Positions 1-55,218 of a DNA stretch of 64,000 bases are shown here, piece by piece. Source of the stretch: Okamejei kenojei. Its lineage: Eukaryota. Numbering within the stretch: the first letter of the stretch is position 1; each line of letters begins with the position of its first letter. The stretch spans positions 46,748,001-46,812,000 of the forward strand of contig CM069143.1 in assembly GCA_035221665.1 (NCBI GenBank), written 5' to 3'. A model generated the notes under the pieces. The model was not told the origin of the DNA, made no database searches, and worked only from the letters and a program-made list of their open reading frames with translations. The position numbers were made by a program, and so were the translations under genes.

Positions 1-918
1 GTCCATATCCAGTAATTCATGCGGAGACAGTTTCCTGGCTGGATACCTGTCCTCATCTAGCAATTCATGCTGGGACAGTTTCCGGGGTGGATATCTGTCC
101 GTATTTGGCAATTCATGCTGGGATAGTTTCCAGAATTGATATCTGTCTATATCCGGCAATTCATGGTAGGACAGTTTCCGAGGTGGATATCTATCCGCGT
201 CTTGCAACTCGTGCTGGGACAGCTTCCGGGGTGGATACCTGTCTATATCCGGCAATTCATGGTGGGATAGTTTCCGGGATGGGTAACTGTTTATATCTGG
301 CAATTCATGGTGGGATAGTTTCCGGGGTGGGTAACTGTCCATGTATGTCAACTCGTGCTGGGACAGTTGTCTGGGTGGATAGCTCTCCATATCTATCAAT
401 CCGTGCTGGGACAATTTCCTGGGTGGATATCTGCCCACATCTGATAATTCGTGCTGGGACAGTTTTCGTGGTAGAATCTTGTCTGTATCTGGCAATTCGT
501 GTTGGCCCAGACTCCGAGATCGGTACCTATTCATATTTGTCAATTCACGTTCAGGTGATTTCTGGGGCTGTAACATATCCAAATCTGGCAACTCATGCTG
601 GGGCACTTTTTGGAACTGGTACTTTTCCAAATCCTCCAATTCATGATGGGGTAGTTTCCTGGTCTGGGAATTTTCAAAATCTGGTAATTCACATTGCGAT
701 ATTTTCTGGCCCTTTTCAAAATTCTCCAATTCACATCGAGGTGGTTTCTTGAATTGGAACTTGTCTGAAACTGGCAGTTCATGCTGAGACAAGTTCCTAG
801 ATTGGTGCGATTCCAAATCTGATGTGCTATGTTGCAATTGTGTTGGGGACTGTTGTTTTCCCAAATCTTTTATTTCATGCTGAGACAGTTTCTGCAATCT
901 GTATTTCTCCAGGTTTGG
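1..918 (-). repeat. Coding 48-bp (16-aa) tandem repeat, at least 19 units, consensus PD(I/T)DRYPPRKLSQHEL
   Basis: Plus-strand unit gcaattcatgctgggacagtttccggggtggatatctgtccgtatttg recurs every 48 nt. Minus-strand translation gives 19 complete units (one of 14 aa) plus a partial unit at the edge. Confidence 0.95.
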
Positions 919-1276
919 TGGTGGAGGTCTCTGTGGTGGAGGATTTTTCTTTTTTTTGTTGGTAGATAAATCATCATGCCTACATGCTTCAAAATCATGT
1001 GAGACACGTTTCTCTCCTTCAAACTTTCTCAATACAGTAGGTGATTCGCAACCAATATCTTCGCCGGTACAATTGCAGACAACTTCACTTTGGGGAGCGT
1101 GTGCGGAGTATGCAGGATAAGGCAAAGACAATGCAGTAGATGGGCTGGGTGTCTCCAAAGAGCTTTCCTGTTTTGATTTCCTTGGCAATTTATTCCACTC
1201 ATCCTCGAGATTCCCTTTTGACTTGGATTCAGAAGGTGCTTCTTGCACACTGCTTACACACTGTATCTTTGTTTCT
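1..1276 (-). CDS. SHROOM4: SHROOM4 coding exon (about exon 6 equivalent), runs off the left window edge; contains a 16-aa tandem repeat
   Basis: Acceptor tttttcag|A at 1277/1276 on the minus strand. Frame is open for 425 codons from 1275 to 1 (ETKIQCVSSVQEAPSESK...KKKNPPPQRPPPPNLEKYRLQKLSQHE...). PPPQRPPPPNLEKYRL matches the recalled SHROOM4 motif PPPRPPPPNWEKYRL. Phase 2 fits the upstream 65-nt exon (AG+A = Arg). Probably absent from the ORF track because it has no stop within the window. Confidence 0.9.
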
Positions 1277-1894
1277 CTGAAAAATACCAAATATTAATGT
1301 GATGTGTTCAAATATTTTGTTAAGAGTTACATACAATGCATATTTTGTGTTGCTTTTCCATGCTATTATTTAATAAAACATGCATGCATGTTCAATAATT
1401 GGTAAAATCTACTAAGAGGGGTGTATAGGTGAGTGAGCGAACGCAGTAGGGCAGAAGGCAGAGGGACACTCTGGAGAGTATGAACCAAACATCAGTGATT
1501 GGCAATATTCTACATCCTTATTAAAAAGGTGCAGTAACAGGACACTTAAATAGTATAACTATGTCTCTATATTCATTGTTGTCCCTCATTTTATTCCCAT
1601 CTAATATTGTGCTGGTTCCTTCTTTATTATCCTTGAACTCTGTACATTTTATTTATTTTATCAATTACAGTAAGCTATATATTAACCCTGCTGCCAATTT
1701 GATTGGAAAAGTTTACAGTAAATTGGAAAGGCTATGTGCACAATCATATTAGCAACAGATAAGAGGAAGAGTGTAACTAAGGAGTAGCTATGGGATAGTA
1801 ATTGTGAAAGTGGTAGCACAGTAGCAAGTGGGAGTAGAGAAGGAAGCAAGTAGAATTCTACTAATGGGAACAGCTAAAAAAAAAAGGGTTTGCC

Positions 1895-2075
1895 ACTGGC
1901 TCAGCCATCAGCGCTGCTGTTAAACAGTTCTAGTGACTGGGTCAATCCTATATGCCGTCTGTGTGAATTTTGCAGAATCTTGCTGTGACTGCATGTGTCT
2001 TCTCCAATTTCCTCCTACATCTCCAAAGATGTGTTGGTTGGTAGGTTAATTGACTGCTGAAAATTGCCCCTGGTA
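1895..2075 (+). mobile_element. Degraded tRNA-derived V-SINE (HE1-like)
   Basis: Residual similarity to the copy at 18515 (gtctgtgtgaattttgca..., tttcctcctacatctccaaagatgtg, taggttaattgactgctgaaattgcccc). Confidence 0.55.
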
Positions 2076-2625
2076 TAAATATGGGACAGGTGATTCAGGG
2101 AACATCATGCGTTTGAAAATTGGTTACAGGAAATAATTGGGGTAATGTATCTGATGGGAAAGGTCAGAGTTGGCGTGATAGGTCAACAGGCGAATGCAAA
2201 TACAAAATAAGAAATCCTTTGAGGGATACCAAAAATGGGTCAGTGCATTTTTCAAAGCACAAAGTGCGCTGGATACTGCATTTACAAATAAAAACGTGGG
2301 CTTATGATACAGTTGTGATAAATGAAATATAAAATTCCCTGGATTAGTAGATAGTTTTGTATCTGTTTTATCAGTCGGCTAATTGCTTATTATCAGGAGT
2401 CTTTAGCCTCAGTGCTGGATCTTTGATGATGGACACTTGAAAACTGGGAGGGTACATGTCAAACAATTTGATTATTAAACTATGCCTGTCTTGAGGAAGG
2501 GGACATTCAGCAACATTCCTGTAAATCCAACATCACAAACACGGTGTGTATAACTTGTCAAATTAAGCCATGTGCTAAGTAAGGAAGAATGAAGACATTC
2601 TGTGGAATTAGTCACTAACTCCTAC

Positions 2626-2690
2626 CTTTCTGGTGAAGAAAACTTCCTGTTTATTATCTCAATCAGATCCAGTTTTTCCACCGGATATCC
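2626..2690 (-). CDS. SHROOM4: SHROOM4 short coding exon (65 nt, about exon 5 equivalent): GYPVEKLDLIEIINRKFSSPE(R)
   Basis: ttctttgcag|GGA...GAAAG|gtagg. Phase 0 in and phase 2 out, exactly bridging the 14418 donor and the 1276 acceptor. Peptide resembles the recalled mammalian EFPGDKWNPITGNRKTSQSGR. Confidence 0.88.
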
Positions 2691-3446
2691 CTGCAAAGAA
2701 GAGTGTCCGTCAGTACAAAGAAACATCCGCAGTCCTATTTACAGCACAGTTGGAAAACACATCAGCAATGTCTTGGATTTACTCTTGGTAGCTCAAGTGG
2801 AGCCAGTTTCCTTAATTAGCAACTAAAGTAAATACCTCACAATGACTGGGTTGGGTTTGTGGAACTTGGAAAAAAGAATCATTGCAGTGCAGAACTAAAT
2901 GGTGGACTGTATTAAAAATATACTCCAACCTGCCATTTAATGACTGCCCGGTTGAAAAGCATCTCAGTTCCAGCATTGTCACCCTCTACTTTTTGGACAA
3001 GTTCTTTATTGCAGATTTATTTATTTTACCCCGACTCAGATGCACATGGACAAATAAGTTCTCAAAATGTAGTTGAAAAAATATAATGTCTTTGATACTG
3101 TTTTTCTTCATAATATTTCCCTTCTTAATGCTGGTGGCTGAGATTGTAGTGACATTTCATAAACATTGATGCTCTTGGCCATTTAATGGATAATCCAGGT
3201 AGGGTGTACCTGAGGTGGAAGCGCTATCATTTATCATCGGAAAAGAAGCAACTTATTTTGACATCTGAAGACATGCCTACAGCAGAAAACCCTGTGACCA
3301 AAAAAAAAGATGGTAGATACAAAACTGCAGTATCAGCAGCTTCTTGACAGCCACAACATGCACTGGTTCTTCAGCACTGCTAAAGCCATTCACAGTCCCA
3401 ACATGTAATCTCTCAGCCCATTGAGAGACAAGTAGTTGAAGGGAAA

Positions 3447-8975: not shown

Positions 8976-9454
8976 GTTAGTTTTGTATCTCCCTCAAGAT
9001 ACTGTACGTTGCTGATTGATTCCAGCATTTGGGGATTATTGCATATGGTTACTAAAGCAATAAAATGAGAATGGCAAATCAACACTGAAAATAAAGTGGA
9101 TGCAATAAGAGGAGCAACATAAAGGGACCGTTAATGGAAGAAAGTCGCAATTAACAATTAATATTTTATGGACAAATGGCATAAATTAAAAAAATCAAGA
9201 TGTGATTTAGGGTGCTCATTCCACAGCAGCTCAGTGGGTGGCCTGCATGGTGATTTTACTTTCTTAGAAGATGGGGGACAATTAGCATGTCGCTGAATAT
9301 ACCATCGAACAGGTGTATAGTAGAGAGCGCACTGACTGGTTGCATCACGGCCTGCATCTAAACCCCTCCCTAGTTGCATTAGTAATATTACTCAATCTAT
9401 CTATCTATCGGGATAAGGAAACTAATTAGAATAATAGAGGTAAAAGTGGACACT

Positions 9455-12400
9455 CAACCCCCAAATATTAAATGATAAGGCTTGTTATGATTACTTGGTA
9501 AAACAGATTAAATTATTTTTTGAAACTAATGACAAACCTGGAATTTCACCATCACTGCTTTGGGATACATTTAAAGCATTTATGCATGGTGCGATAATAT
9601 CAGCACACGCATACTTTAATAAGGAAAATCGAAAGACTCAAAAGTTGGAAAATGAAATAAAACAATTAGATATTGAAAATGCAATATCCCCTTCAAAGGG
9701 GCTAAGTAATAAAATTGCATCATTAAAATATAAGCTAAATAAAATATATTCAAATCAGATTATTAAACTTTTTCAACAGACTAAACAAGTACACTTTGAA
9801 TTTGGGGATAAACCACAAAAATTACTGGCACGCCAGCTTAGAAAATTAGATGAGGAGAAAATGATACATAAAATTAGATTTGAACAAGGAGAAATATTGA
9901 CTTTACCAAAAGATATCAATGATACATTTTTACAATATTATCAAAATCTTTACTCATCTAAACTAGCAGGACAATCAAATGGAATGGAAACATTCCTACA
10001 AGAATGTCATATTAATAGTTTGGATCAGGAAGGTAGACACTTGTTAAATGCTGATATATCAGTAAAAGATATTGAAGAATCAATTGGATCATTAAATAAT
10101 GGAAAAGCCGCAGGCCCTGATGGCTTAAGTGTTGAATTTTATAAGAAGTTTTATGATCTGATCTCTCCACGTTTACATATAATGTATAAATATGCTTATG
10201 AACAAGGAAAGTTACCAGAATCATTAAATGAATCTACAATTACACTTATCCCTAAAGCTGATAAAGATTTGGAAGACCCTGGGTCATACAGAGCAATAGC
10301 TCTTTTAAACACTGATCAAAAAATACTAACTAAATTTTTATCTCAGAGGCTAAGTTTAGTGATTAATAACTTAATACATCATGACCAAACAGGTTTTATC
10401 CCAAAACGCTATTCATCTTATAATCTGAGACGTCTATTCAATATCATATACTCAAAAAGAGTGAATGATATTGAACTAGCTGTCATATCCTTAGATGCTG
10501 AAAAAGCATTTGACCAGGTTGAATGGCCATATTTATTTAAAATAATGCAGAAATTTCAACTGGGGGATAGATTTTCCAAATGGGTAAAAATCATATACTC
10601 GAATCCAACTGCAAGAATATTAACAAATCAAATGTTATCAGCAAAATTTAATCTCTTTAGGGGTTGTAGACAAGGATGCCCGTTATCACCATTACTATTT
10701 GCTCTGGTAATAGAACCATTAGCCAAAATGATTAGATCAGAACCAGAAATATATGGATACAATACCAAAACTACAACAAATAAAATATCTTTATACGCAG
10801 ATGACATCTTAATTTATATCACAAAACCGGAGATTAATATTCCCAATCTACTTAATGTTATAACTAAGTTTGGCACATTTTCTGGGTATAGAATTAACTG
10901 GAATAAAAGTGAAATTATGCCTATAACTGGGATAAAATTAAATATATTAGAACAATTCCCACTTAAAATAGTCACGGACAAATTTAAATATCTAGGAATT
11001 AACGTATCCAAATCCTATAACTGTCTATTTAAATATAATTACCCTCAATTGTTAAATAAACTAAAAAAAGATATTTTATATTGGAAAACACTACCTATTT
11101 CAATGATCGGTAGAATAAATGCTATAAAAATGATTTTTTTTTTGCCACAATTGTTATATTTATTTCAAGCCATCCCTTTATATCTCCCTAAAATGTTTAA
11201 AAAAAAAATAGATACTTTGGTTAATAGTTTTATTTGGGACTATAAAAGTCATCGAATAAGTTAAAAACATCTATGTAAATCTAAAATAAATGGTGGACTA
11301 GCACTACCAAATTTCTTATATTATTTCTGGGCAGTTCAGATTAAGAATATGAATTTTTGGTTGGTAAATTTAGATTATGAGCCAAGCTGGCTAAAGATGG
11401 AAAAGGAAGACTTTTTGCCTTTTGATGTAGGTTCGATTCTTTTTAGTACCAAGGGAAGTACAAAAATAAACCGTATGGTGCCAACCCTATAATTTATAGC
11501 AATAGACGTATTTGGAAACAAATAGTTAAGACCCTACATATGGATAATTTGTCACTTTGTTTGCCAATTATGAATAATCCTTTGTTTAAGCCCTCTGTAT
11601 TGGACAAGGGGTTTAGACACTGGAATGATTTAGGAATTAAAAGGATAGAAAACCTTTACAAGAAAGGAAAATTATTTAATTTCAAGAGTTACAGGATATC
11701 TATGGATTGCAATCAAATAACATATTTAGGTATTTACAAATTAGAAACTATATTAAATCAAATACACAAGACTATAAAAATAGAAAACCAGGATTATTAG
11801 ATGAATTGTTTAATAAACACCCAAATACAGAAAAATTAATAGCGTATATATACACACAATACTATCTTGGATAGGGAAATCCCAACTTCGGAAATATATC
11901 GACAAACATGGGAAAATGAAATAGGTTTATCTATAACGAAGGAAACTTGGGAAGAAAGCCTACAACGTATACATCGTTGCTCATTAAATGCTAGACATAT
12001 ATTGATACAATTTAAGGTATTACACAGATTATTCAAAACGAAATTAAATAGAATTTATCCTAACATTTCTGCTATTTGTCAGAACTTGGAAGCTAATTTA
12101 ACGCATAGTTTTATAACATGTATAAAACTTAATTATTATTGGACAGAAATCTTTAGAGTAGAGTCATTTCTGAAGTTCTTAAAATTAAACTGGAGCCCAG
12201 ATCCAAAATTAATAATATTGGGAGTTCCGGATTCAAATCTAATATTACCAATAAACCAAATAAATTTCTTGGATTACTGTTTGATAATAGGGAAAAAATT
12301 AATATTGAAATTTTGGAAGGGAACATTATCCCCCATAATTAAAATGTGGACAGTGGAAATGTTGGAGACGTTGCATTTGGAAAGAATCACATTTGTCCTA

Positions 12401-12846
12401 ATGGACAAATACGAACTCTTTGAACAGATATGGTCTCCATATACAGAATATTTGAAGGGGTAGCTGTTCTTGGCATCACAACTCAATGGGTACCTGGCAG
12501 GATTAGATGAAAATAATTAATTTTTTAAAAATTTGTATACATGTCTCTATTAATATCGTTATTTGAAATTGTGTTATTCACAATTAAGATGCATACTATA
12601 ATATATATTACTTTGTTTTATTTTTTTTTAATTTTTTTTTCTTTCTCTTTCTATATAATCAAAATTATTATTTAATCACTATTCTTTTATAAAACCTATT
12701 CTTTTCTTTTTTCTATTTTCTAAAAAATAGAAGTTTATAAGAATTATTCGTAACATCTGTATACTTATTGAAATAAGTTGGTTGTGTATTTGAAAAGTTG
12801 TTATACCGTTGTTATGATGGATTACTTCTAATAAAAATATTATCAA
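9455..12846 (+). mobile_element. 5'-truncated L1-clade LINE with 13-bp TSD
   Basis: ORF2 RT 9495-11264 (KAAGPDG, SYRAIALLN, DQTGFI, SLDAEKAFD, GCRQGCPLSPLLF, LYADD, KYLG). Frameshifted C-terminus to 12463. AATAAA at 12830. TSD AAAAGTGGACACT at 9442-9454 and 12847-12859. Confidence 0.95.
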
Positions 12847-12990: not shown

Positions 12991-13984
12991 CAGTGCATTC
13001 AGAAAGTATTCAGACCCCTTCACTTTCTCCACATTTAGTTACATTACAGCCTTATTCACAAAATGGATTAAATTCATTGTTTTATTATCAACACAATATC
13101 CCATAATAAAAAAAAGTGAAAACATGTGTTTAGACATTTTTGCAAAATAATTAAAAAGAAATAACTGAAATATCACATTTACATAAGTATTCAGACTCTT
13201 TATTCAGTACTTTGGCAGCGATTAGTCTGACGTCTTCTTGTGTAAGACGCTTCAAGCTTGGCACACGTGTATTTGGGTAATTTCTCCCATTCTTCTCTGC
13301 AGATCCTCTCGAGCTCTGTCAGGGTGGATGGGGAGCGTCGATACACGGCTATTTTCAATCAAGAATCTCTCTGTACTTTTGCTCTGTTCATCTTTCCCTC
13401 GATACTGACTAGTCTCCCAGTTCCTGCCACTGAAAAACATCCCCACAGCATGATGCTGCCACCACAATGCTTCACTGTAGGTATGGTATTGGCCAGGTGA
13501 TGAGTGGTGCCTGGTTTCCTCCAGACGTGACGCTTGGCATTCAGGCCAAAGAGTCCAAGATTGGTTTCATGAGACCACAGAATCTTGTTTCTCATGGTCT
13601 GAGAGTCCTTTAGGTGCCTTTTGGCAAATTCCAAGCGGGTTGTCATGTGCCTTTTATTGAGGATTGGCTTCCGTCTGGCCACTCTACCATAAAGGCCTGA
13701 TTGGTGGAGTGCTGCAGATATAGTAGTCCTTCTGGAAGGTTCTCCCATCTCCACAGAGGAACTCTGGAGCTCTTTCAGAGTGACCATCGGGTTCTTGGTC
13801 ACCTCCCTGACCAAGGCCCTTCTCCCCCGATTGTTTGGGCGGCCAGCTCTATGAAGAGTCCTGGTGGTTTTAAAGTTCTTCCATTTAAGATAAAAAAATG
13901 AATCTAATTCATTTTTTAAAAAAGGCTGTAACGTAACAAAATGTGGAAAAAGTGAAGGGGTCTGAATACTTTCTGAATGCACCG
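12991..13984 (-). mobile_element. Internally deleted Tc1/mariner (IR/DR type) transposon
   Basis: TIRs CAGTGCATTCAGAAAGTATTCAGACCCCTTCACTTT, flanked by TA at 12989-12990 and 13985-13986. Inner DR (aagtattcagac) at about 13185. Transposase remnant [11 protein letters not shown]...WSHET...[14 protein letters not shown]. The segment carrying the second D and the E is deleted. Confidence 0.95.
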
Positions 13985-14417
13985 TATGTGCGATATCTTG
14001 TGTGCATTAACCAGGCTGGCATGAGCATATTCCAGGTATTATCAATATTGATTACATCAGAATTCTGCCCTTTAATCTTAGCTGCCCAAGTTAAAAATAT
14101 AACACCTGTATCAACAGGAAGTCAAATAGGTTCCTAGATACACAAATACTGTACATCTTGGTCTTTTCACATGTCCACAGTTTTACAGCCAACAAGATCT
14201 GATTCAACACGAAATGAACCAGATTGAACAGCACAATGCTTCTCATACGAAAAGTAAAAACATCTGGATACATTTGCTTCTTCAACATGCTCTATAACAG
14301 TTTTATCATTGGTTTAATTTATCAAAACCAACAAAATCAGAGAGTTTACACACTGGGAAAATAAAATCCCGGCAGAAAAATTGGCACTTAAATTAATAAT
14401 TAATATAAATGGCCTAC

Positions 14418-16833
14418 CTTGGGTAAAGTGGGTGGCGCCTGTTTGAATCTTGTGGTAGATCGAGGTTCTTCGAGGTGACCATCATCTGAATGACAATCCT
14501 GATAACATATTGATGGACCTTTGGTGGGGGGTTGTATCTGTTGAATATGGTCTTTCAAAGTGCTTGATAAATTTGTTTTGAGTGGCTCTATATGTTCACA
14601 TGTCTGTTCACGTTGTTTCTCTCGAGTGTAGTGTTTTTGTTGTTCTGAGTCTTGAGATGAACAAGCTGGATGTTTCTCAGAGCATTGGCTGACACTGCCT
14701 GTAGAGACTTGGAAGGTGTCCTCATCGGACTGCATCAGATCATCACATGGAAGCATGTGCAACTTACTGTATAAATGCTGACCTTTCGACCTTCCTATGG
14801 AATTTGATTTATTCTTTAGAGCTATAAAATTGCAAGAATCAGATCCAGAGTAGCTTTTACTAGTTTCTTCAAAGAATTTTCTCCTCTCTGCAAAGGGTAT
14901 TAATGGGGAGGTATCTGGTTCCTGCAACGATGCCATTGTACACTGTTTCATCTCATCTGCCTCACTTGCCTTCATCACCTTACTTTGACACTCCAGCTTA
15001 TTTTCAGATGTCCAACCCCTGAGGTCACCTCCCCAAGATTCCTGTGCAGTCTTCTGTTCAAAGCTTTGGGATACTGAATCTATTTCCATTTTGCATTTGT
15101 CTGATGAAATATTGGAATTGCTGGTCAATGAACAGAAATGCACACTTCCAGTTTTATGATCTTCTGCCACGTTATCCAGGTTTTTATTGGAACTGGTTGT
15201 CTGTGGCTTCATACTGGTAGTTTCCTCTGCTATGTTGTTGGCCTCAGACTCATCTATTATACAAGTATAGAAAGTGGATGGCTTCTCGCTTGGCTCACTC
15301 ATTTCTTCGGAAGCTTCCTCCATCTGCAGTAGTGCACCACCACATTTCTTATGGAGCTGAGCTTTCTTCATTTGTATCTCATTCCGCAAATTTGTGGCAA
15401 AGCGGTCACTTTTGCGCCGCATTCTGGCTGCTCTGGAACTTGAGACCCGGGTATTTCGGACAGTTTCGTTCTTGATTTCTTCCAAATCTGCCTCTGTTTC
15501 TATAATATTACTACTTGAGGATGCACTTCCAATTTCACTCATTGGATCAGATGGTATTGGTGATACCTGCTGATGGGCTATCATTTCAACAGATACACCT
15601 CTGCAACTTGTTCGACTGTGTTGAGTCTTGCAAGAAGAAAGGTCTTGACTGTCTAAACAGTGACTGCAGGTAGAGCCACCAACGTCATGTTGATTTCCCT
15701 TCAGTTTGCATTCAGACTTCAAAGGATTCTCTTTTATCCGCTTTTCAAATGTCGAATCAATTTTGTTCAAAGCTTTATAAGGAAGCCCAACATTGGACTG
15801 ATATCCATCCTGAGGTAAAGGCATACTATTGGGCCATTCACCTCTTTCCTGATTGCACAGTATTCCCAAACCATTTTTATTACCGTCCGAAATCATCGGT
15901 GAATGCAATTGCACTGACAATAACTTCTCAGGCGCACTGTGTCTATGCAAATTTACAGTCAATCTTTCACACTGATCCGTTTGATTTAGGTTCTGGTATT
16001 GACTGGCAACAAATGATGGATCAATTAAGTTGCATAATTCCAACTGCCCCATTAAATACCGATTGGATTTTCCAGGATATGTTGTATTTTCATGAGAAAT
16101 AATTTCTTCACCTTGCCTATGAGAATGACAGTAGTGCCTTGGTTGTTCTCTCAACTGGCAGCAACATTCGACTGGACAATGACTTGACACGGATTTACTA
16201 CAGTGCTGGGAAGAGCCAGTTGAGCTATTAGGAACACAACAGTCTCCTGAAGAATCCCTATTCCTTGTTGATAACAAGGTTTCAGAAGTCCATCTACCAC
16301 GATGAAGCAGCAAGTTTGTTGTTCTAAATGCCTCAGAACTTGTCACACACACAGATGCAGAGCGAGCTTTAGTTGCCACAAAACTTTCCCTGCGAACAGG
16401 CGGTGGTGGAGGGGCTGAGCTGGTAGAACCTGGAGCATTGGCTTCACGTACATGGGATGGTGGTAGGTTGTCTCTTTCAGATGACCCCTTCCCACAGTGT
16501 GAACATAGCTGTTCTTCAGCTGGTGGCTCCCCACCCTCACTTCCACTTTGCAGGTACTGGGTGTCCCCATACCTTGTTGGTAGCCATGGTCCCAAACCAT
16601 GCAAGATACTGTCCATGGAAGCAGACTCATCTGTCTTAATTGATGACGAGACAGTGTAGTCAGAGGTGTTAGAACTTGCAGAAAATGAGCTGTAGGCAGA
16701 ATCTCTTTTGTTAGGATATGTGCTTTGGTCACAACTTTGGTTAGGTTGGTCAAGGCTGTCCATACTTCCGAATGAGCTCCTTTGATCCAAGTTGTGACGG
16801 AGAGCTAGTTGATCCCACTGCATAGGAAAGTCA
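14418..16833 (-). CDS. SHROOM4: SHROOM4 large coding exon (2416 nt, about exon 4 equivalent)
   Basis: Within ORF 14400-16898. Acceptor ttttcttctatcttccag|T and donor CCCAAG|gtaggc. SHROOM4 motifs SSFGSMDSLDQP, YPNKRDSAYSSFSASSN, PPPPPVRRESF, HRHSAPEKLL, RRKSDRFATNLRNEIQ and PFAERRKFFEE. Confidence 0.95.
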
Positions 16834-21105: not shown

Positions 21106-21237
21106 CTGGAGTCATATCCCGAATGCCACGACAGACTTAAAGACCCTGATGAATAGGGCATCATAGTAGCCTCAGGTTGCGTCTCCGATAACTTGGCCAG
21201 GTGCCATGTGTAAGGTCTTATCCCTGGGCCACTTCTC
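21106..21237 (-). CDS. SHROOM4: SHROOM4 coding exon (132 nt, about exon 3 equivalent): RSGPGIRPYTWHLAKLSETQPEATMMPYSSGSLSLSWHSGYDS(S)
   Basis: ttctttcttttag|G...CCAG|gtgag. Phase 2 at both ends, matching the large exon (AG+T = Ser). Resembles the recalled post-PDZ motif RPHSWHVAKL...FSLSWHSG. Confidence 0.93.
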
Positions 21238-39035: not shown

Positions 39036-40363
39036 GGCCTTATTTGACCATCATCTCTACCTTTGTAAGAGAAAAACACTTTCCTTCCATCTCTATAAAT
39101 TACTATACAATTTCCTGCCTCCCCTAGATAACGATTATATTTTTGCATGCCAAGTTCAGACTTTTTCCACAACTCTCTATCTATTGTCTTCCAATTATTA
39201 TTCCACCACAGTACTGAAGATCGTTCCAGGAATTTCTCTCTCTCCAACCTCGAGCTTTCTTTTAAAAAAAGAGCCAAGCATTCAATTAACCACTCCCAAG
39301 CAACTTTAGTTAGACATTCATTCCTTTATCTCTTTGATGTCCATATCATTACCCCTGCACTCCTTGCACCTCACCCCCACCATCCTCGCTCTCACTGGGA
39401 CATTTTCTAAAGAGGCCATATAAATGCACACTTATTAATATGTAGTTTTCTCCCATTACTGATGAATCAGATTAGATGGAAACCAGTCAGACGTTTACCA
39501 TGTTTAGTTCCCAGCCAAAAGATAAATAGCCCACATTATGCTGTTATCATATTCACATCATGCTTTTGGAATTAGATCTTTGGCACTTATTCTATGGCAT
39601 TGATCATGAATGCGACAACGTGTCCAGCACTCGAACAGTAAAATTGCTCAAGTTTGAAGTTAATGGCATTTTACTCATACAAATCCAGTTACCAAATTCA
39701 CCAGTTTGACTTGGGGTATACTCAATTATATTAATAGTTTAATGTACAGAGTGGGGCATGAAAGAGACATTGGACTTGTTAGCATAATTTTTTTTTACAT
39801 TCAGGAAACTAATCATTTATCACAGAGTTGCTTTGGGGAACCTTGCTTTTTGAAATTCAGACTAGTACAAAGACAAATCTTTAGTCAGTGGTTAATGCAG
39901 TTGGTCTTGTGACCTTGACAATTGACACTCATGATGACAAAGACAGACGCCAATGTAGTACAGTAAGACTTGGTGTTAAACAAAATAGAGCAGCCGAGTT
40001 TTAAACATGTGGAGTAGAAAAGACAATAAGCTGAAGGTTAATGGTGGGTTGGGGTAGGCAATAAGGAAACCAAAATGTGCCGTGGCTGGGTGAAATAAAG
40101 AAAAAGCTGAGGGAATGGCTAGGTTTAAGCCTATTATTGTCATATGTACTGAGGTACAGTGAAAAGCTTTGTTTTGCTTACTAACCAATCAAATAATACA
40201 TAAATACAATCAACCCAAACCCAAGTACAATTGGCAGTGAAGGAAAATATACAAAGTGCAGCATATAGTTTGCAGAGCCATCTGATGAAATTACCCTTTT
40301 TTCTCACACTACTTGTCATAATATATTTTTAATTAATTAAAATAATTGATCAAAATTACAATT

Positions 40364-43300
40364 ATAAAATCCTTGGGGGAATCATGATTTCCTCCCAAGC
40401 ATTTTATAATAAAAAGAATCGTAAGGATCAACAAGATTTGGAAAAGGAGATTAAACAATTAGATATACAGAATGCAGCGAAGCCAACTACAATACTACAT
40501 AATAAAATTGCAGCATTGAAATATAAATTAAATAAAATATATACAGATCAAGTTGTTAAACTTTATCAACATACTAAACAATTACAGTTTGAATTCGGTG
40601 ATAAACCTCAAAAATTATTGGCTCGCCAACTAAGGAAAATGGAAGCTGAAAATATAATCCATAGGATTAAATCACATAATGGCGAATTGTTAACACAACC
40701 TAAAGATATTAATGAAAGATTTATGCAATATTATAAAAACTTATACACTGCTAAAATAACAGAAAATAAAATAGGAATAGAAGCATTTAAAAAAAATGTA
40801 ACCTGAAAGGGTTGGATTTACAAAATAGAGAGTTACTGAATGCTGATATTTCGATAAATGAAATCCAAGAATCAATCAGATCATTAAAAAACGGTAAAAC
40901 ACCGGGACCTGATGGCATTGGCTCGGAATTTTATAAAATATTCTATGATCAGATTGTACCACGTCTGAAATCATTATATGAACATATATATACACAGCAA
41001 AAACTACCAGAAACATTAAATTAATCTACTATAAGTTTTACCTAAAATAAACAAAGACTTGGATGAACCAGGGTCATTTAGAGCAATAGTTCTTTTAAAT
41101 ACTGATCAAAAGATATTAACTAAAATATTAGCACAAAGGTTAAGCTCAGTTGTTAATAAATTAATTCATCCCGATCAAACAGGATTTATACCAAAACGAT
41201 ACTCTTCATATAATTTGAGACGGTTATTTAATATTATATACTCGAAAAGAGGTATTAATAAAGATCTAGTAGTTATTTCGTTAGATGCAGAGAAAGCCTT
41301 CAATCAAGTGGAATGGCCTTATTTGTTCTCGGTTATGGAAGCTTTCAAACTGGGAGAAAAGTTTATTACCTGGATCAAATTGCTATATACAAATCCGACA
41401 GCTAGAATAATAACAAATCGAATGTTATCACCTAAATTCAATCTATCTCGACAAGGTTGCCCTTTATCCCCTTTACTGTTTGCACTGGCAATAGAACCCC
41501 TAGCTCAGAGGATGAGATCACATCCGGAAATACATGGATATATATTTATCGACCAGAGAAGGGGTTGTGCTGGACCTCCTGTTAGGAAATGAGGCAGGTC
41601 AGGTGACGGAGGTATGCGTTGGTGAGCACTTCGGGACCAGCGATCACAATACCATTAGTTTCAATATAATTATGGAGAGAGTCAGAACTGGACCTAGGGT
41701 GGAGATTTTTGATTGGAGAAAGGCTAACTTTGAGGGAATGCGTAAGGACTTTAAAGGAGTGAATTGGGACACTTTGTTTCATGGGAAGGATGTAGAAGAG
41801 AAATGGAGGACATTTAAAAGGGGAAATTGTAAGAGTACAGAATCTTTATGTCCCTGTTAGGTTGAAAAGGAAATAGTAAAAATTGGAAAGAGCCATGGTT
41901 TTCAAGGGAAATTGGACACTTGTTTCGAAAAAAGAGAGATATCTAGAATAATTATAGGAGGCATGGAGTAAATGAGGTGCTAAGAGTATAAAGAATGTAA
42001 AAAGAATCTTAAGAAAGAAATTAGGTAAGGCTAAAAGAAGATATGAGGTTGCTTTGGCAAGAAAGGTGAAAGTAACCCAAAGGGTTTCTACAGCTATACT
42101 AATAGCAAAAGGATAACGAGGGATAAAATTGGACCATTAGAGAACCAGAATGGACAGCTATCTGCAGAGCCAAAAGAGATGGGGGGGAGATATTGAACAA
42201 TTTCTTTTCTTCGGTATTCACCTAGGAGAAGGATATTGAACTCGGTGAGTTAAGGGGAAAAAGTAGAGTAGCTATGGAAACTATGAGAGCCAAAGAGGAG
42301 GAAGTACTGACACTTTTGAAAAAATAAAAGTGGATAAGTCTCCAGGTCCTGACAGGATATTCCCAAGGACATTGAGGGAAGTTAGTGTAGAAATAGCAGG
42401 AGCTATGACAAATATTCAAATGTCCATTAGAAACGGGAATAGTGCCGGAGGATTGGCGTACTGCGCATGTTGTTCCATTGTTTAAAAAAGGGTTCAAAGA
42501 ATAAACCTAGCAAATTATAGACCTATTAGTTTGACGTCAGTGGTGGGCAAATTAATGGAAAGGATACTTAGAATAATATATATAAAGCTCATCTGGATAA
42601 ACAGGGTCTGATCAGGAACAGTCAACATGGATTTGTGCCTGGAAGGTCATGTTTGACAAACTTCTTGAATTTTTTTTGAAGCGGTAACTAGGGAAATTTG
42701 ATGAGGGTAAAGCAGTGGATGTTGTCTATATGGATTTCAGTAAGGCCTTTGACAAGTTCCCCATGGAAGGTTGGTTAAGAAGGTTCAATCTTTGGGTGTT
42801 AATGGCGGAGTAGCAAGATGGATTCAACAGTGGCTGAATGGGAGATGTCAGAGAGTAATGGTGGATGGCTGTTTGTCAGGTTGGAAGCCGGTGACCAGTG
42901 GGGTGCCTCAGGGATCTGTGTTGGGGTCCACTGTTGTTTGTCATGTACATCAATGATCTGGATGATGGGGTGGAAAATGGATAAGTAAGTATGCAGATGA
43001 TAGGTGGTGTTGTGATAATGAAGTAGATTTTCAAAGTCTACAGAGAGATTTGGGCATTTGGAAAAGTGGGCTGAAAGATGGCAGATGGAGTTTAATGCTG
43101 ATAAGTGTGAAGTCTACATCTTGGCAGGACAAATCAAAATAGGACGTACATGGTAAATGGTAGGGAATTGAGGAATGCTGTGGAACAGAGGGATCTAGGA
43201 ATAACTGTGCATAGTTTCCCTGAAGGTGGTAATCGCATGTAGATAAGGTGGTAAAGAAAGCCTTTGGTGTGCTGGCCTTTATAAATCAGAGCCATTGAAT

Positions 43301-51082: not shown

Positions 51083-53860
51083 ATGGAAAAGAAAATGGAG
51101 AAATCTCAAAGAAAGATTTCGCGGGTTAAAAGATCATCCCGGGGTGAAGCTAAAAATACGGGACAAGAGATTAGTGCGAATCCGGTTCCGATACCGGTGG
51201 CCGCTGATTCACCCGTTAGTGAGATTATAATTTCTCCAGAAATACTAGCCACGGAGGGAAATGTTCCTAAAAAATGTAAAAAGAAATCCGTGAGGCCCGT
51301 GGTTTCTGATAATGACTCTGACAATGAAAGTCCTCCGGATAATAAAGCTATGTGGCTAAAAATGGAACATATGGAGAAAGTACTCCAAAATATTATGAGA
51401 CAAGGGTCACAGTACCCAGAAGTTTCCCAAAAAGACCCTGAGGGGCTTGAATATACAGAATATGGCTATGTGCCAAATTGGGAATTTGAAACTCCGGACC
51501 CAGGATTTAGGGCGGAGGAAGTCTCATTGGATATAATTCCAAGTGGATCAGGGCTGCAAAAGACAGACCCTGCAAGTGGTGATGTGGATTATGAATGCAC
51601 ACCACAAATAAAAAAGAAAAGGCCAGATGTGCCTGGGATAGCAAAGGATTTTGCTATACCTGAAGGAAGTGGTGAGGCTATGGAAGAAAACCTAGCTGCC
51701 AACATTAATTATATGGTATCTCACCAACTTCAAGATTCTGTGATGATTGAAACAGCAGAATTATATAAAACACCGGATAATTGTGCCTCATTGGAGGTAC
51801 CTACGGTTAATCCATCTATATGGACATCTATGACCCCAAGCATGAGAGGACAAGAAATGAGATTTCAAAGAATCCTCAAATTAATTTCTGCTGCCATTAC
51901 TGCATATGGAAGACAAATGGAGGGGTTGGAGATGGATAAAATTCAAAAAGATACTTTGGGCTTATTATGCAATTCCTTCTATGAAATTAATTGTATGAGA
52001 AAAATTGCGATTCGGCCCATATTTCATCCAAGGTTTGCAAGTCTGTGTCGAGCAAGTGGTGTTCAAGCTCCTGGTTATCTATTTGGAGAAAACCTCCATA
52101 AACAAATAAAAGATATGGATGAAGAAGCTAAATCTATTAGCCACATGAGACCTTTCGTCTTTGGACAAAAAAGGTATTTTTCGCCAAGAAGGCGATTTGA
52201 TTTTGGAAACAGAGGCAGGAATATGACAAGGAAATATTATCATCCGACACAGCCTAATGTTTACCCGTATACAGGGAGAAGGAGACCAACACGTTCATAT
52301 GGAGAGGTACAAAAGATTTATTCTATGTTTAAAGAAACTGTGGACAAATCTCCAGTTGGAGGGAGATTACAAATGTTTTATGATGAATGGCTTACCATCA
52401 CATCTGATCGGTTTATTTTACAAACAGTTTCAGGAGCTACTATTACATTTAAAGAAGGTGTTAACTCTCCAGTACAAAATAAACCTGCTTATGCTTTCGT
52501 GTTTTCTGCAAAGGAAAAGGCAGAAATAAATGGGGAAATTGACAAATTGCTTAAAAAAGGTGTTATTGAAAAAACTGTTGAACACGAGCATCAATGTGTG
52601 TCAAATATATTTCCAAGAGATAAAAAAGATGGTGGTTGCAGAATTATTCTGGACCTTACAAATCTTAATAAATTTGTCGAATACAAACATTTTAAAATGG
52701 AAACGTTTAATACTGTAAGACATTTGATATCAGCAGGTTGTTATATGGCTACAATTGGTTTAAAGGACACTTATTATTCTGTATCAATACATCAGTTCTT
52801 TCAAAGGTATTTAAAATTTAATTGGCTGGGACAGCTGTGGCAATTCAGAGCTTTACCAAATGGGTTAAGTTCAGCTCCCAGGCTCTTTACAAAGCTGTTG
52901 AAACCAGTTTTAGCACAATTAAGAGCACAAAAACACATCGTTATGGCTTATCTCGATGACATTTTAATCATCAATGACAATCAGGAATCAGCTGGAAAAT
53001 CAGTTTCAGCAACTAAAGCTTTATTTGAAAAGTTAGGGTTCTTGATCCATCCAATTAAGTCCCAGTCAATTAACTATTTGGGGTTTGTAATTAACTCCGT
53101 TACTATGTTAGTAATTTTACCAACAGATAAGATTGATGATATTTTGGTGACTTGTAGGGGTCTCATTCACAAACTTTATCCCTCCATCCGAGAAGTAGCA
53201 AAGATTATTGGTAAGCTAGTAGCAGCATTTCCTGCAGTGGAATTTGGTCCATTACATTACCAAAACCTTCAAAGGGACAAAATAAGAGCTCTAAAAAAGA
53301 GAGCAGGCCACTTTGATAGGCCTATGCAATTAACAAAAGAAGCTTTATTGGAATTACAATGGTGGATTGAAAATGTCCCACAAGCTGCTAGAAACATTCT
53401 GATACAACAGCCTGAAGTGATTTTACAAACGGATGCTAGCGCTCTCGGATGGGGGGCAACAGATTCATTCTCCAGTTGTGGAGGTAGATGGACTGTCCAA
53501 GAGGAAATGTTTCTCCAAACATATGGTATTAACTATTTAGAATTGTTGGGTGCTTTTTATGGACTGAAGGCATATTGTTCTACAAAAAAGAATCTACATG
53601 TACTAATACAATTAGACAATAAAACAGCTGTTGCATATATTAATCACATGGGCGGAGTCAGATCGGTATCATGTGATTGTCTGGTCAATCAGATATGGCA
53701 ATGGTGTATTAACCACCAAATTTGGATCTCGGCAAACTACATTCCAGGTAAAGACAATGTGGTGGCAGATAATAGATCAAGGATATTTAAAGATAACACA
53801 GAATGGATGCTGAACCCAGTAATTTTCAGTAAAATTGTGACTCGATATGGGTTACTGTAA
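51083..53860 (+). CDS. DIRS Gag-like region in frame with RT-RNaseH (925 aa)
   Basis: Gag-like P.NC..L.VP.VN..IW and LFGENL. RT GGRL..F...W..IT.D, KKDGGCRIILDL..LN, HFKMET, F.ALPNGLSSAPR.FTK, YLDD. RNaseH QTDAS..GWG, INYLEL, DNKTAVAYIN.MGG, IPGKDNVVAD. Confidence 0.9.
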   Translation: MEKKMEKSQRKISRVKRSSRGEAKNTGQEISANPVPIPVAADSPVSEIIISPEILATEGNVPKKCKKKSVRPVVSDNDSDNESPPDNKAMWLKMEHMEKVLQNIMRQGSQYPEVSQKDPEGLEYTEYGYVPNWEFETPDPGFRAEEVSLDIIPSGSGLQKTDPASGDVDYECTPQIKKKRPDVPGIAKDFAIPEGSGEAMEENLAANINYMVSHQLQDSVMIETAELYKTPDNCASLEVPTVNPSIWTSMTPSMRGQEMRFQRILKLISAAITAYGRQMEGLEMDKIQKDTLGLLCNSFYEINCMRKIAIRPIFHPRFASLCRASGVQAPGYLFGENLHKQIKDMDEEAKSISHMRPFVFGQKRYFSPRRRFDFGNRGRNMTRKYYHPTQPNVYPYTGRRRPTRSYGEVQKIYSMFKETVDKSPVGGRLQMFYDEWLTITSDRFILQTVSGATITFKEGVNSPVQNKPAYAFVFSAKEKAEINGEIDKLLKKGVIEKTVEHEHQCVSNIFPRDKKDGGCRIILDLTNLNKFVEYKHFKMETFNTVRHLISAGCYMATIGLKDTYYSVSIHQFFQRYLKFNWLGQLWQFRALPNGLSSAPRLFTKLLKPVLAQLRAQKHIVMAYLDDILIINDNQESAGKSVSATKALFEKLGFLIHPIKSQSINYLGFVINSVTMLVILPTDKIDDILVTCRGLIHKLYPSIREVAKIIGKLVAAFPAVEFGPLHYQNLQRDKIRALKKRAGHFDRPMQLTKEALLELQWWIENVPQAARNILIQQPEVILQTDASALGWGATDSFSSCGGRWTVQEEMFLQTYGINYLELLGAFYGLKAYCSTKKNLHVLIQLDNKTAVAYINHMGGVRSVSCDCLVNQIWQWCINHQIWISANYIPGKDNVVADNRSRIFKDNTEWMLNPVIFSKIVTRYGLL

Positions 53861-53896
53861 AATTGTGACTCGATATGGGTAAAATTGTGACTCGAT

Positions 53897-54252
53897 ATGG
53901 ATCTGTTCGCATCAAGACTAAATCATCAGTTGCCTAAATATGTGTCTTGGGAACCAGACCCAGACGCAGTAGCAGTAGATGCTTTTTCATTACACTGGGG
54001 GAATATGTTCTTTTATGCTTTTCCACCATTTGCTCTGGTTCAGCAATGTCTGAAGAAAATAGGACAAGATTCTGCCACAGGATTGTTGGTAATCCCAAAT
54101 TGGCCGACACAACCTTGGTCCCATTGATGTTAAACATGATTAAAGAACCATATATGTCAATTCCTAACAGCAGTGATTTATTGATAAAACCAGTAACCAA
54201 AGAAATTCATCCATTACATGCTTATATGAATTTGTTAATCTGCAGGTTTTGA
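53897..54252 (+). pseudogene. DIRS N6-adenine methyltransferase-like domain, disrupted
   Basis: DLFASRLN...VDAF...W....YAFPPF...PNWPTQPW. Frameshift near 54120 into PLMLNM...HPL...LLICRF. Confidence 0.85.
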
Positions 54253-54290
54253 CCAGACCACTACAGGAGCTTGGATTGTCGGATAGAACT

Positions 54291-55218
54291 ATGGATGTTA
54301 TAGCCGCATCATGGCGAGATAGCACACAAAGACAATATATGACACATATAAAGAAATGGGAAGGATTTTGCAGACCGTGAAATATATCTTATCATACTGT
54401 GAACATTGCAAACGTATTGGAGTTCCTTGCCGAATTGCATTTTGAACAACACTTAAGTTACAGTGCCATTAATAGTGCACGTAGTGCCTTATCATCTTAT
54501 TTAGGACAAATATCTGACCAGAAATCAATTGGATCACATCCATTAATATCCAGATTTATGAAAGGAATCTTTAACAAAAACCCGCCAAAACCAAGATATA
54601 CAGAGATTTGGGATGTTAGCATTGTACTTACTTTACTTAGGCAATGGACTCCAATCGAAGGTTTGTCATTGGAAAGATTAACATTCAAATTAGTAATGTT
54701 AATGTCATTGGTTTCAGCTCAAAGGGTGCAAACATTACAAATGTTGCGTTTAGACTGTATGCATGTGACTACAGATAACATTGTGTTCTATGTTTACGAT
54801 CTGATCAAACAAAGCAGACCAGGAAGAACTGGAGCAAAGGTAACCTTTCAAACTTATCCTATTGATCCAACATTGTGTGTAGTTAGACATTTGAACCAAT
54901 ATATAAAAATTACCAAAACTCTTCGAGGTAATGAAAAAACATTAATGATTACGCATAAGAAACCACACACAAAAGCTTCAGTACAAACAATCTCAAGGTG
55001 GTTAAAACGTGTTACTTTTAGCAGGAGTAGACACTGATGTGTTCAAATCTCACTCCACCAGGGCAGCAGCTACATCCGCAGCGAAGGTGCGGGACGTACC
55101 GCTCGAGCATATTTTAGAAACCGCAGGGTGGAGTAAAGAAATAACTTTTTCAAAGTTCTACAATAAACCTGTTCACACAATGACAGGCTTTGGACACACG
55201 GTGTTGGGTTCACTATAG
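54291..55218 (+). pseudogene. DIRS tyrosine recombinase with a premature stop and a frameshift
   Basis: MDVIAASWRDSTQRQY...; in-frame TGA at 54378. Catalytic residues in SAQR, KQSRPG, HSTR, AGW and F.KFY. Frameshift at about 55010. Confidence 0.9.

Follow-up and report, generated by a model that had tools for sequence, protein, structure and literature searches.

SHROOM4 of sharks and rays carries an array of 16-residue repeats, a candidate multi-site target of a basophilic kinase

Passages of PMC5343488 describe Shrm4 as a protein with a PDZ and an ASD2 domain but no ASD1 domain and name an EVH1 site in the mouse protein. According to excerpts of two further papers, all four human ASD2 domains bind ROCK1 (PMC10626209) and the centre of SHROOM4 is actin-targeting (PMC9157246). 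In the open-licence literature searched we found no regulation of SHROOM4 by phosphorylation; the available part of PMC10262053 does not mention phosphorylation, and the searched parts of the supplements of PMC4477863 contain matches to Shroom2 and to no other Shroom. Concerning basophilic kinases, an excerpt of PMC11064662 ranks RKxS as the second-best PKA motif after RRxS and reports its enrichment among PKA-dependent sites of yeast. ROCK prefers basic residues at -3 to -1 too, and a consensus motif alone does not fix kinase specificity (excerpts of PMC4477863).

We analysed a stretch of 64,000 nucleotides from the skate Okamejei kenojei (contig CM069143.1; called the window here), whose first-pass annotation had proposed a SHROOM4 gene with a 16-amino-acid repeat array acting as a possible multi-site phospho-array. 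Judged by relatives, domain layout and tree, the gene is SHROOM4, in agreement with this earlier call. The best relatives are skate proteins annotated as Shroom4-like, with 86% and 83% identity across the array exon. The closest of them (P0001) possesses a PDZ domain at its N-terminus and, at its C-terminus, an ASD2 domain (E 1.6e-105); ASD1 gave no match in P0001 or in the large exon of the window at E 0.1, a threshold at which SHROOM2 controls do match. PDZ exons were not found in the 64-kb window, and ASD2, which is listed for all 22 matches of the relative search, lies past the window edge. In a tree of ASD2 sequences 12 elasmobranch and 19 bony-vertebrate SHROOM4 rows were separated with 100/100 support from 11 ASD1-bearing rows, the named members of which are SHROOM2, with no named SHROOM1 or SHROOM3 included. 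Judged by this relative, the locus resembles vertebrate SHROOM4 (KIAA1202, Shrm4) in its PDZ and ASD2 domains, the lack of ASD1 and the polyproline motif. The Gln/Glu stretch described in front of ASD2 of the mouse protein is absent after the motif here, but it is not a defining feature of SHROOM4, since non-placental bony SHROOM4 rows lack it as well. SHROOM2 and other ASD1-bearing rows (P0150, P0154, P0166, P0178 and P0186) contain a related motif, PxRPPPP, with basic residues behind it, so the polyproline part is older than the split of the paralogues. The coordinates of the features are compiled in Table 1.

Table 1. SHROOM4 exons and parts of the repeat array located in the window
Feature	Position	Strand	Evidence or remark
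SHROOM4 coding exon right after the PDZ domain, 132 nt, AG/GT	21106..21237	-	tblastn, Leucoraja residues 87-136, 88%
Large central SHROOM4 exon, 2416 nt	14418..16833	-	93% identity, Leucoraja residues 128-942
65-nt coding exon ahead of the array exon	2626..2690	-	96%, Leucoraja residues 942-964; contigs X1, X3, X5
Array-bearing exon, open to the window edge	1..1276	-	joint 1276/2626; ORF 1..1293
Polyproline motif PPPQRPPPP, single copy	916..942	-	translation; putative EVH1/SH3-type site
Unit 1	871..918	-	orthologue of the vertebrate module's 5' half; Q replaces R at -3
Units 2-9, diverged, frozen	493..870	-	position-by-position common to batoids; without RKLS
Units 10-19, homogenised batoid core	13..492	-	contains all eight RKLS motifs
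Unit 20, first 4 codons	1..12	-	cut by the window edge

Read on the minus strand from position 918 to 1, the window contains 306 codons and no stop codon, whereas the other two minus frames contain 10 and 21 stops. The open frame comprises 19 complete units, 18 of 16 amino acids and unit 5 of 14 amino acids. RKLS occurs eight times, always within units 10-19, with first bases at 468, 420, 324, 276, 228, 180, 84 and 36. Using Tandem Repeats Finder, a 48-bp period was detected at 1-505 (10.5 copies, 76% matches) and also at 581-691. When neutral evolution of the 18 full-length units was simulated on a star phylogeny, 7.0-8.4 stops accumulated on average and none of 2000 runs was free of stops; the same simulation for units 10-19 alone gave no significant avoidance of stops (P about 0.065). 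The best identity to another unit of the array is 11-14/16 for units 10-19, compared with 6-10/16 for the eight units of 16 amino acids among units 1-9. Of the polyproline motif, which is the same in the SHROOM4 rows, only the last proline enters unit 1. At positions 9-12 unit 1 reads QKL[ST] or QKPS in 20/20 species, and units 1-9 are 68-70% identical to those of Narcine and Hypanus. Recounting bore out several statements of the first-pass annotation: the minus frame open through 19 units next to two interrupted ones, the eight RKLS motifs and the first unit as the tail of the conserved polyproline motif. The unit that it quoted as homogenised appears in that exact form only once (unit 15), although the later units of the window are indeed more alike.

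To follow the junction 2626->1276 named in the first-pass annotation, contigs from 4 of 17 listed runs were aligned to window positions 1-3000. The splice sites (GT at 2626, AG at 1276) keep the reading frame, and the phases of the upstream exons match. Contigs from two studies carry the joint: in X1 and X3 (one study) and in X5 (another study and another organism) position 2626 is joined to 1276, with intron ends CT..AC, and depth is zero across 1301-2000 within the intron. X12 covers the intron and does not show the joint. None of the listed runs is recorded as RNA, and for X3 the label is 'probably DNA', so that the spliced reading is based on the joint together with the empty intron, which is in keeping with spliced RNA. 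X1 and X3 each provide a single contig of 13.3 kb that covers 1-1276 without a gap, differs from it at 12 places and continues for about 9 kb beyond the edge of the window. The loose end of these contigs at position 2692 agrees in 30/30 letters with the 3' end of the large exon, as judged by eye. X5 contains one extra unit, visible as a step back of 48 at 94->47. The array is coding, is spliced to the upstream SHROOM4 exons and is not skipped in these contigs, which as such could miss rare skipped isoforms. The extension of about 9 kb past window position 1 in contig 1 of X1 goes far beyond the remaining coding need, which makes a long 3' UTR likely. A short high-copy repeat, met in hundreds of X12 contigs, is located at 2020-2080 in the intron ahead of the array exon.

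These contigs leave hardly any room for the array being an artefact of assembly or annotation, or a repeat that transcripts skip. Such an explanation could point to a sawfish model that lacks the region, to a Mobula isoform spliced inside the array, to three donor-like 9-mers within the array and to a short Chiloscyllium model with 8 units beside another with 19. Against it stand the gap-free single contigs joined to upstream exons and the presence of the array in 21 species, by which it is largely refuted.

Further repetitive DNA was observed elsewhere in the window. On the plus strand at 51083-55037 an intact ORF of 925 amino acids with a reverse transcriptase domain is followed by a frame of 218 amino acids, which gave no Pfam match and looks tyrosine recombinase-like by eye; the element is probably a DIRS-type retrotransposon, situated in an intron or upstream of the gene. 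The intervals 9444-12463 (+), 40333-41592 (+) and 13359-14006 (-) contain broken copies of LINE-like reverse transcriptases and a piece of a Tc1-like transposase.

The comparison of unit numbers suggested by the first-pass annotation demonstrated that sharks and rays have 10-33 units where bony-vertebrate SHROOM4 has a single module. Among the shark and ray species with protein models, all of which are automatic, 21 of 22 have the array, bounded by the polyproline motif on one side and by a common end on the other, and in the models with the array the frame is continuous through to ASD2. The 20 full arrays range from 10 units (Rhincodon) to 33 (Hemitrygon) and contain 6-18 R[RK]x[ST] motifs each; other skates have 25-27 units. 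The exceptional species is the sawfish Pristis pectinata, whose model P0023 skips the region and has neither polyproline motif nor array. Among the remaining models, one isoform of Mobula hypostoma is truncated by a splice within the array, an Amblyraja isoform is missing a single unit, and the Chiloscyllium model mentioned above is short; the unit tallies were made without these Mobula and Chiloscyllium models and without duplicate isoforms. The first-pass annotation had named universality in vertebrate SHROOM4 as a point against its proposal, but the unit motif was detected in 0 of 171 other rows of the Shroom search (P0023-P0193). Within the 103 rows with the polyproline motif a strong repeat in the neighbourhood was found only in goby SHROOM4 (P0157, Eucyclogobius newberryi); it consists of 4-5 copies of about 21 amino acids, lies ~70 amino acids downstream of the motif and is unrelated. 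A chimaera SHROOM4 (Callorhinchus) was not present among the best 120 of 435 matches, nor among the named ones of 86 representatives; 30 entries were looked up, 20 of them from these representatives, and C. milii SHROOM2 turned up. Relatives of the array exon with a length of 233-744 amino acids were absent from 4021 candidates. To judge from these protein models, the array is elasmobranch-wide and old and not peculiar to O. kenojei.

The full-length arrays revealed a shape that the window could not display. Within a species the units of the middle are almost the same (up to 16/16), whereas those at either end have diverged and are held in common by different species. The polar expansion suggested by the first-pass annotation was therefore rejected: the apparent polarity arises because the window breaks off within the homogenised middle. 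A pair of distal units can be recognised in sharks and rays alike, which implies that an array of several units is older than their split. This split took place roughly 250-300 million years ago. In the core units positions 3-8 are specific to the shark or ray lineage and positions 9-16 are shared, as expected for concerted evolution with one half of the unit under constraint. The middle of the array would have been turned over by unequal exchange.

In bony vertebrates we identified the probable source of the repeat. Column counts over 72 distinct rows revealed one module in SHROOM4, consisting of polyproline followed by N/K-W-E-K-Y-x-x-R-R-A-S-H. A separate count started from 97 outgroup rows (P0024-P0120), of which 81 match the motif; the 16 without a match were dropped and 10 of placental type were set aside. 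A sequence R[RK]x[ST] occupies positions 9-12 in 64/71 non-placental rows of this set, in which rows are not equivalent to species. The outgroup includes a SHROOM4-like model from Acipenser sinensis (P0055) with a chloride-channel domain (PF00654), probably a prediction fused with a neighbouring gene. When the 356 internal array units were scored against the outgroup profile, 347 scored best in the RRAS register, and positions 9-14 alone peaked in the same register (mean 9.1 versus 5.6 for the next). The last unit retains R[RK]G[ST] in 10/13 sharks and in 0/7 batoids. It is likely from these alignments that the array arose by amplification of the single RRAS module of bony-vertebrate SHROOM4. 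Since the 5' half of the module survives in the first unit and RRG[ST] in the last shark unit, we infer an internal duplication of the module, which would have occurred before the shark-ray split. The first-pass annotation had taken xKLS as part of the conserved motif; the vertebrate motif is instead RRASH, and the polyproline part lies outside the repeat.

In placental rows positions 9-12 read FRAA or FQAA and a polyQ/E tract follows immediately, so that the RRAS site is lost. Both the RRAS site and the tract are absent from the platypus row (P0075) and the marsupial rows (P0142, P0220 and P0225). The previously claimed coincidence of the array with the mammalian polyQ/E position consequently holds for placental mammals and does not extend to platypus and marsupials, which have no tract; the tract as a therian feature was rejected on account of the marsupial rows. 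Marsupials read HRLSQH, which is near the elasmobranch KLSQH. The idea of an independent repeat-expansion hotspot was not supported, as its basis is just three unlike repeats: the array, the placental polyQ/E tract and the one goby repeat ~70 amino acids downstream.

A second motif, RxRSxS (often RQRSQSLP), follows the RRAS site in 63 rows of P0024-P0120; we take it to resemble a 14-3-3 mode I or AKT site. After the array it was present in 0/20 elasmobranchs. Unit 9 of the window (493-540), a frozen batoid unit, reads RYRSRSL and so matches RxRSxS, probably through convergence.

As proposed in the first-pass annotation, dN/dS was calculated among units. For units 10-19 as a whole it amounts to 0.30, with 0.74 for positions 1-8 and 0.06 for RKLS. 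Minimal-change counts gave 7 silent to 2 replacing changes at RKLS and 12 to 28 elsewhere (P=0.019), and the seven best-kept columns scored 67/70, where 2000 null runs reached at most 66; in all these tests related units and species count as independent observations. In the core units of the window the RKLSxHEL half is under purifying selection. RKx[ST] is kept in 19/20 and 20/20 species in the two frozen distal units common to sharks and rays, with Leu at +1 in 39/40. At the same time the site is far from invariant. The full [RK][RK]x[ST] motif is present in 182/356 full-length units of the relatives and in 8/19 units of the window, so that the earlier figure of over 300 amino acids of basophilic sites was overstated. 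Position -3 is R in 227, Q in 70 and W in 44 of the 356 units. The sawshark core is mostly homogenised to QKLS (11 QKLS-type, 5 RKLS-type and 3 WKLS-type units), and in shark cores D2 (0.98), L16 (0.97) and Q+1 (0.93) are kept better than R-3 (0.65), whose conservation there is weak. The last unit is without the site in 7/7 batoids, and unit 1 is without R-3 in 20/20 species. Between skates the array diverges faster than the large exon, with identities to Leucoraja of 0.89 and 0.95.

A second reading is a tolerated minisatellite, in which only 2-3 frozen distal sites matter and the middle is a near-neutral coding VNTR that stays open because of the frame and is at most a spacer. We regard this explanation as unlikely, but it is the strongest competitor of a phospho-array. 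Unit number spans 10 to 33, and other lineages tolerate unrelated repeats in this exon. R-3 decays in 114/356 units to Q or W, the expected products of CpG codons, and the frozen distal units keep R in 39/40 cases compared with about 163/229 core units (phylogeny uncorrected). CGG is the commonest -3 codon in the window core (5/10), and Q and W are its expected CpG products; a fast decay buffered by redundancy fits these data, and weak selection on the core copies fits them too. A near-neutral middle is difficult to reconcile with the core units of the window, which pile up silent changes at RKLS and HEL with the residues unchanged. Moreover, shark and ray cores turned over positions 3-8 and not 9-16, and all 20 full arrays retain at least 6 R[RK]x[ST] sites.

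Alternatively, selection could act on KLSxHELxD(L/I/V)xxY as a docking or actin-binding motif repeated into a multivalent binding array, whose basophilic look is inherited and not functional. H14 (0.80), E15 (0.87), L16 (0.86), D2 (0.90) and Y6 (0.75) are all better kept than R-3 (0.64), HEL is without a counterpart needed in PKA recognition, and an actin-targeting role has been described for the middle region of SHROOM4 (PMC9157246, in excerpts). We nevertheless judge such a binding array to be improbable: it has no relative in Pfam, PDB or Atlas and no confident fold, prolines at positions 7-8 of batoid units would break a shared helix, and the strict RKx[ST]L of the frozen units suits a kinase motif.

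The serine might also be the target of a non-basophilic kinase. CK2 recognises S-x-x-E and ATM/ATR recognise S-Q. S/T-x-x-E/D is found in 267/356 units and S/T-Q in 198, compared with 182 for R[RK]x[ST]. The ancestral module is however RRASH, in which SQ or SxxE is not the majority; Q+1 varies freely in the window (6/10) and is replaced by Leu in the best-kept units, and basic residues just upstream are an unusual context for CK2. Phosphorylation by these kinases therefore appears very unlikely.

We slightly favour the reading that the array is a multi-site target of a basophilic kinase, PKA in the first place and ROCK or another AGC kinase in the second, a proposal drawn from the sequences and strengthened by the RRAS site in register in the outgroup. 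Ser12 of the unit would be the residue phosphorylated. The number of R[RK]x[ST] motifs in the whole protein is 12-24 in six elasmobranchs and 6-7 in five bony vertebrates. The array is predicted to be a disordered linker ahead of the ROCK-binding ASD2 domain, with FoldIndex values of -0.16 to -0.24 and an AlphaFold mean pLDDT of 49, nearly all coil; in this low-confidence model (pTM 0.16) the sole helix of at least 4 residues lies in unit 1. Searches for a known repeat fold or family returned no Pfam family, no PDB sequence match at E 1 and a best Atlas value of 0.83. A folded tandem-repeat domain was rejected for want of a confident repeating fold and of a Pfam, PDB or Atlas relative, and LC8, clathrin-box, B56 and MAPK docking motifs did not fit (consensus compared by eye).

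The array of the window is charge-balanced, with 46 K+R and 51 D+E. In the most speculative part of the mechanism, 6-18 phosphates would turn this linker strongly acidic, and the coupling of the actin-targeting centre to ASD2-ROCK-myosin contractility would thereby be tuned by degrees. On a wider scale one might imagine an undescribed, ancient cAMP/PKA input at one RRAS site, single from bony fish to birds, replaced by polyQ/E in placentals and multiplied in elasmobranchs as a phospho-rheostat, with unit number setting the gain on ROCK-myosin contractility and ROCK, docked on ASD2, perhaps marking its own scaffold; we offer this scenario tentatively and consider it doubtful.

The sequences of the array are already public, unnamed and without comment, in RefSeq 'Shroom4-like' models of sharks and rays, and a published description was not found in the open-licence literature searched. 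The array singles out one serine, conserved from fish to birds, that is open to a direct test in zebrafish or Xenopus, and the polyQ/E tract of human SHROOM4 sits at the position of the lost RRAS site. If the proposal is true, one regulatory motif has been amplified and kept throughout a vertebrate subclass, in an array whose ends are frozen and whose middle turns over, and the 10-33 units form a natural copy-number series for studies of multi-site phosphorylation.

Compared with the closest known systems, elasmobranch SHROOM4 differs from that of bony vertebrates, which has one RRAS module and a downstream RxRSxS, in having 10-33 copies and no RxRSxS after the array. The Gln/Glu tract of mouse and human SHROOM4 is described in passages of PMC5343488; in the rows compared here it has the same start as the array, right after the module. 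The tract is made of homopolymer runs and confined to placental rows, whereas the skate array is built from a 16-amino-acid unit. The regulatory region of CFTR is disordered, contains multiple R-R/K-x-S sites read by PKA in a graded manner and has a proven function; the array would work in a comparable manner. The CFTR region has no tandem repeats and no homology to the array, for which a function is only inferred. Neurofilament KSP repeats and the CTD of RNA polymerase II are tandem phospho-acceptor repeats in a disordered tail with a copy number that varies between lineages. Both are proline-directed and proven to be phosphorylated, while the array of sharks and rays has a basophilic motif in a longer unit and no sequence relation to either of them.
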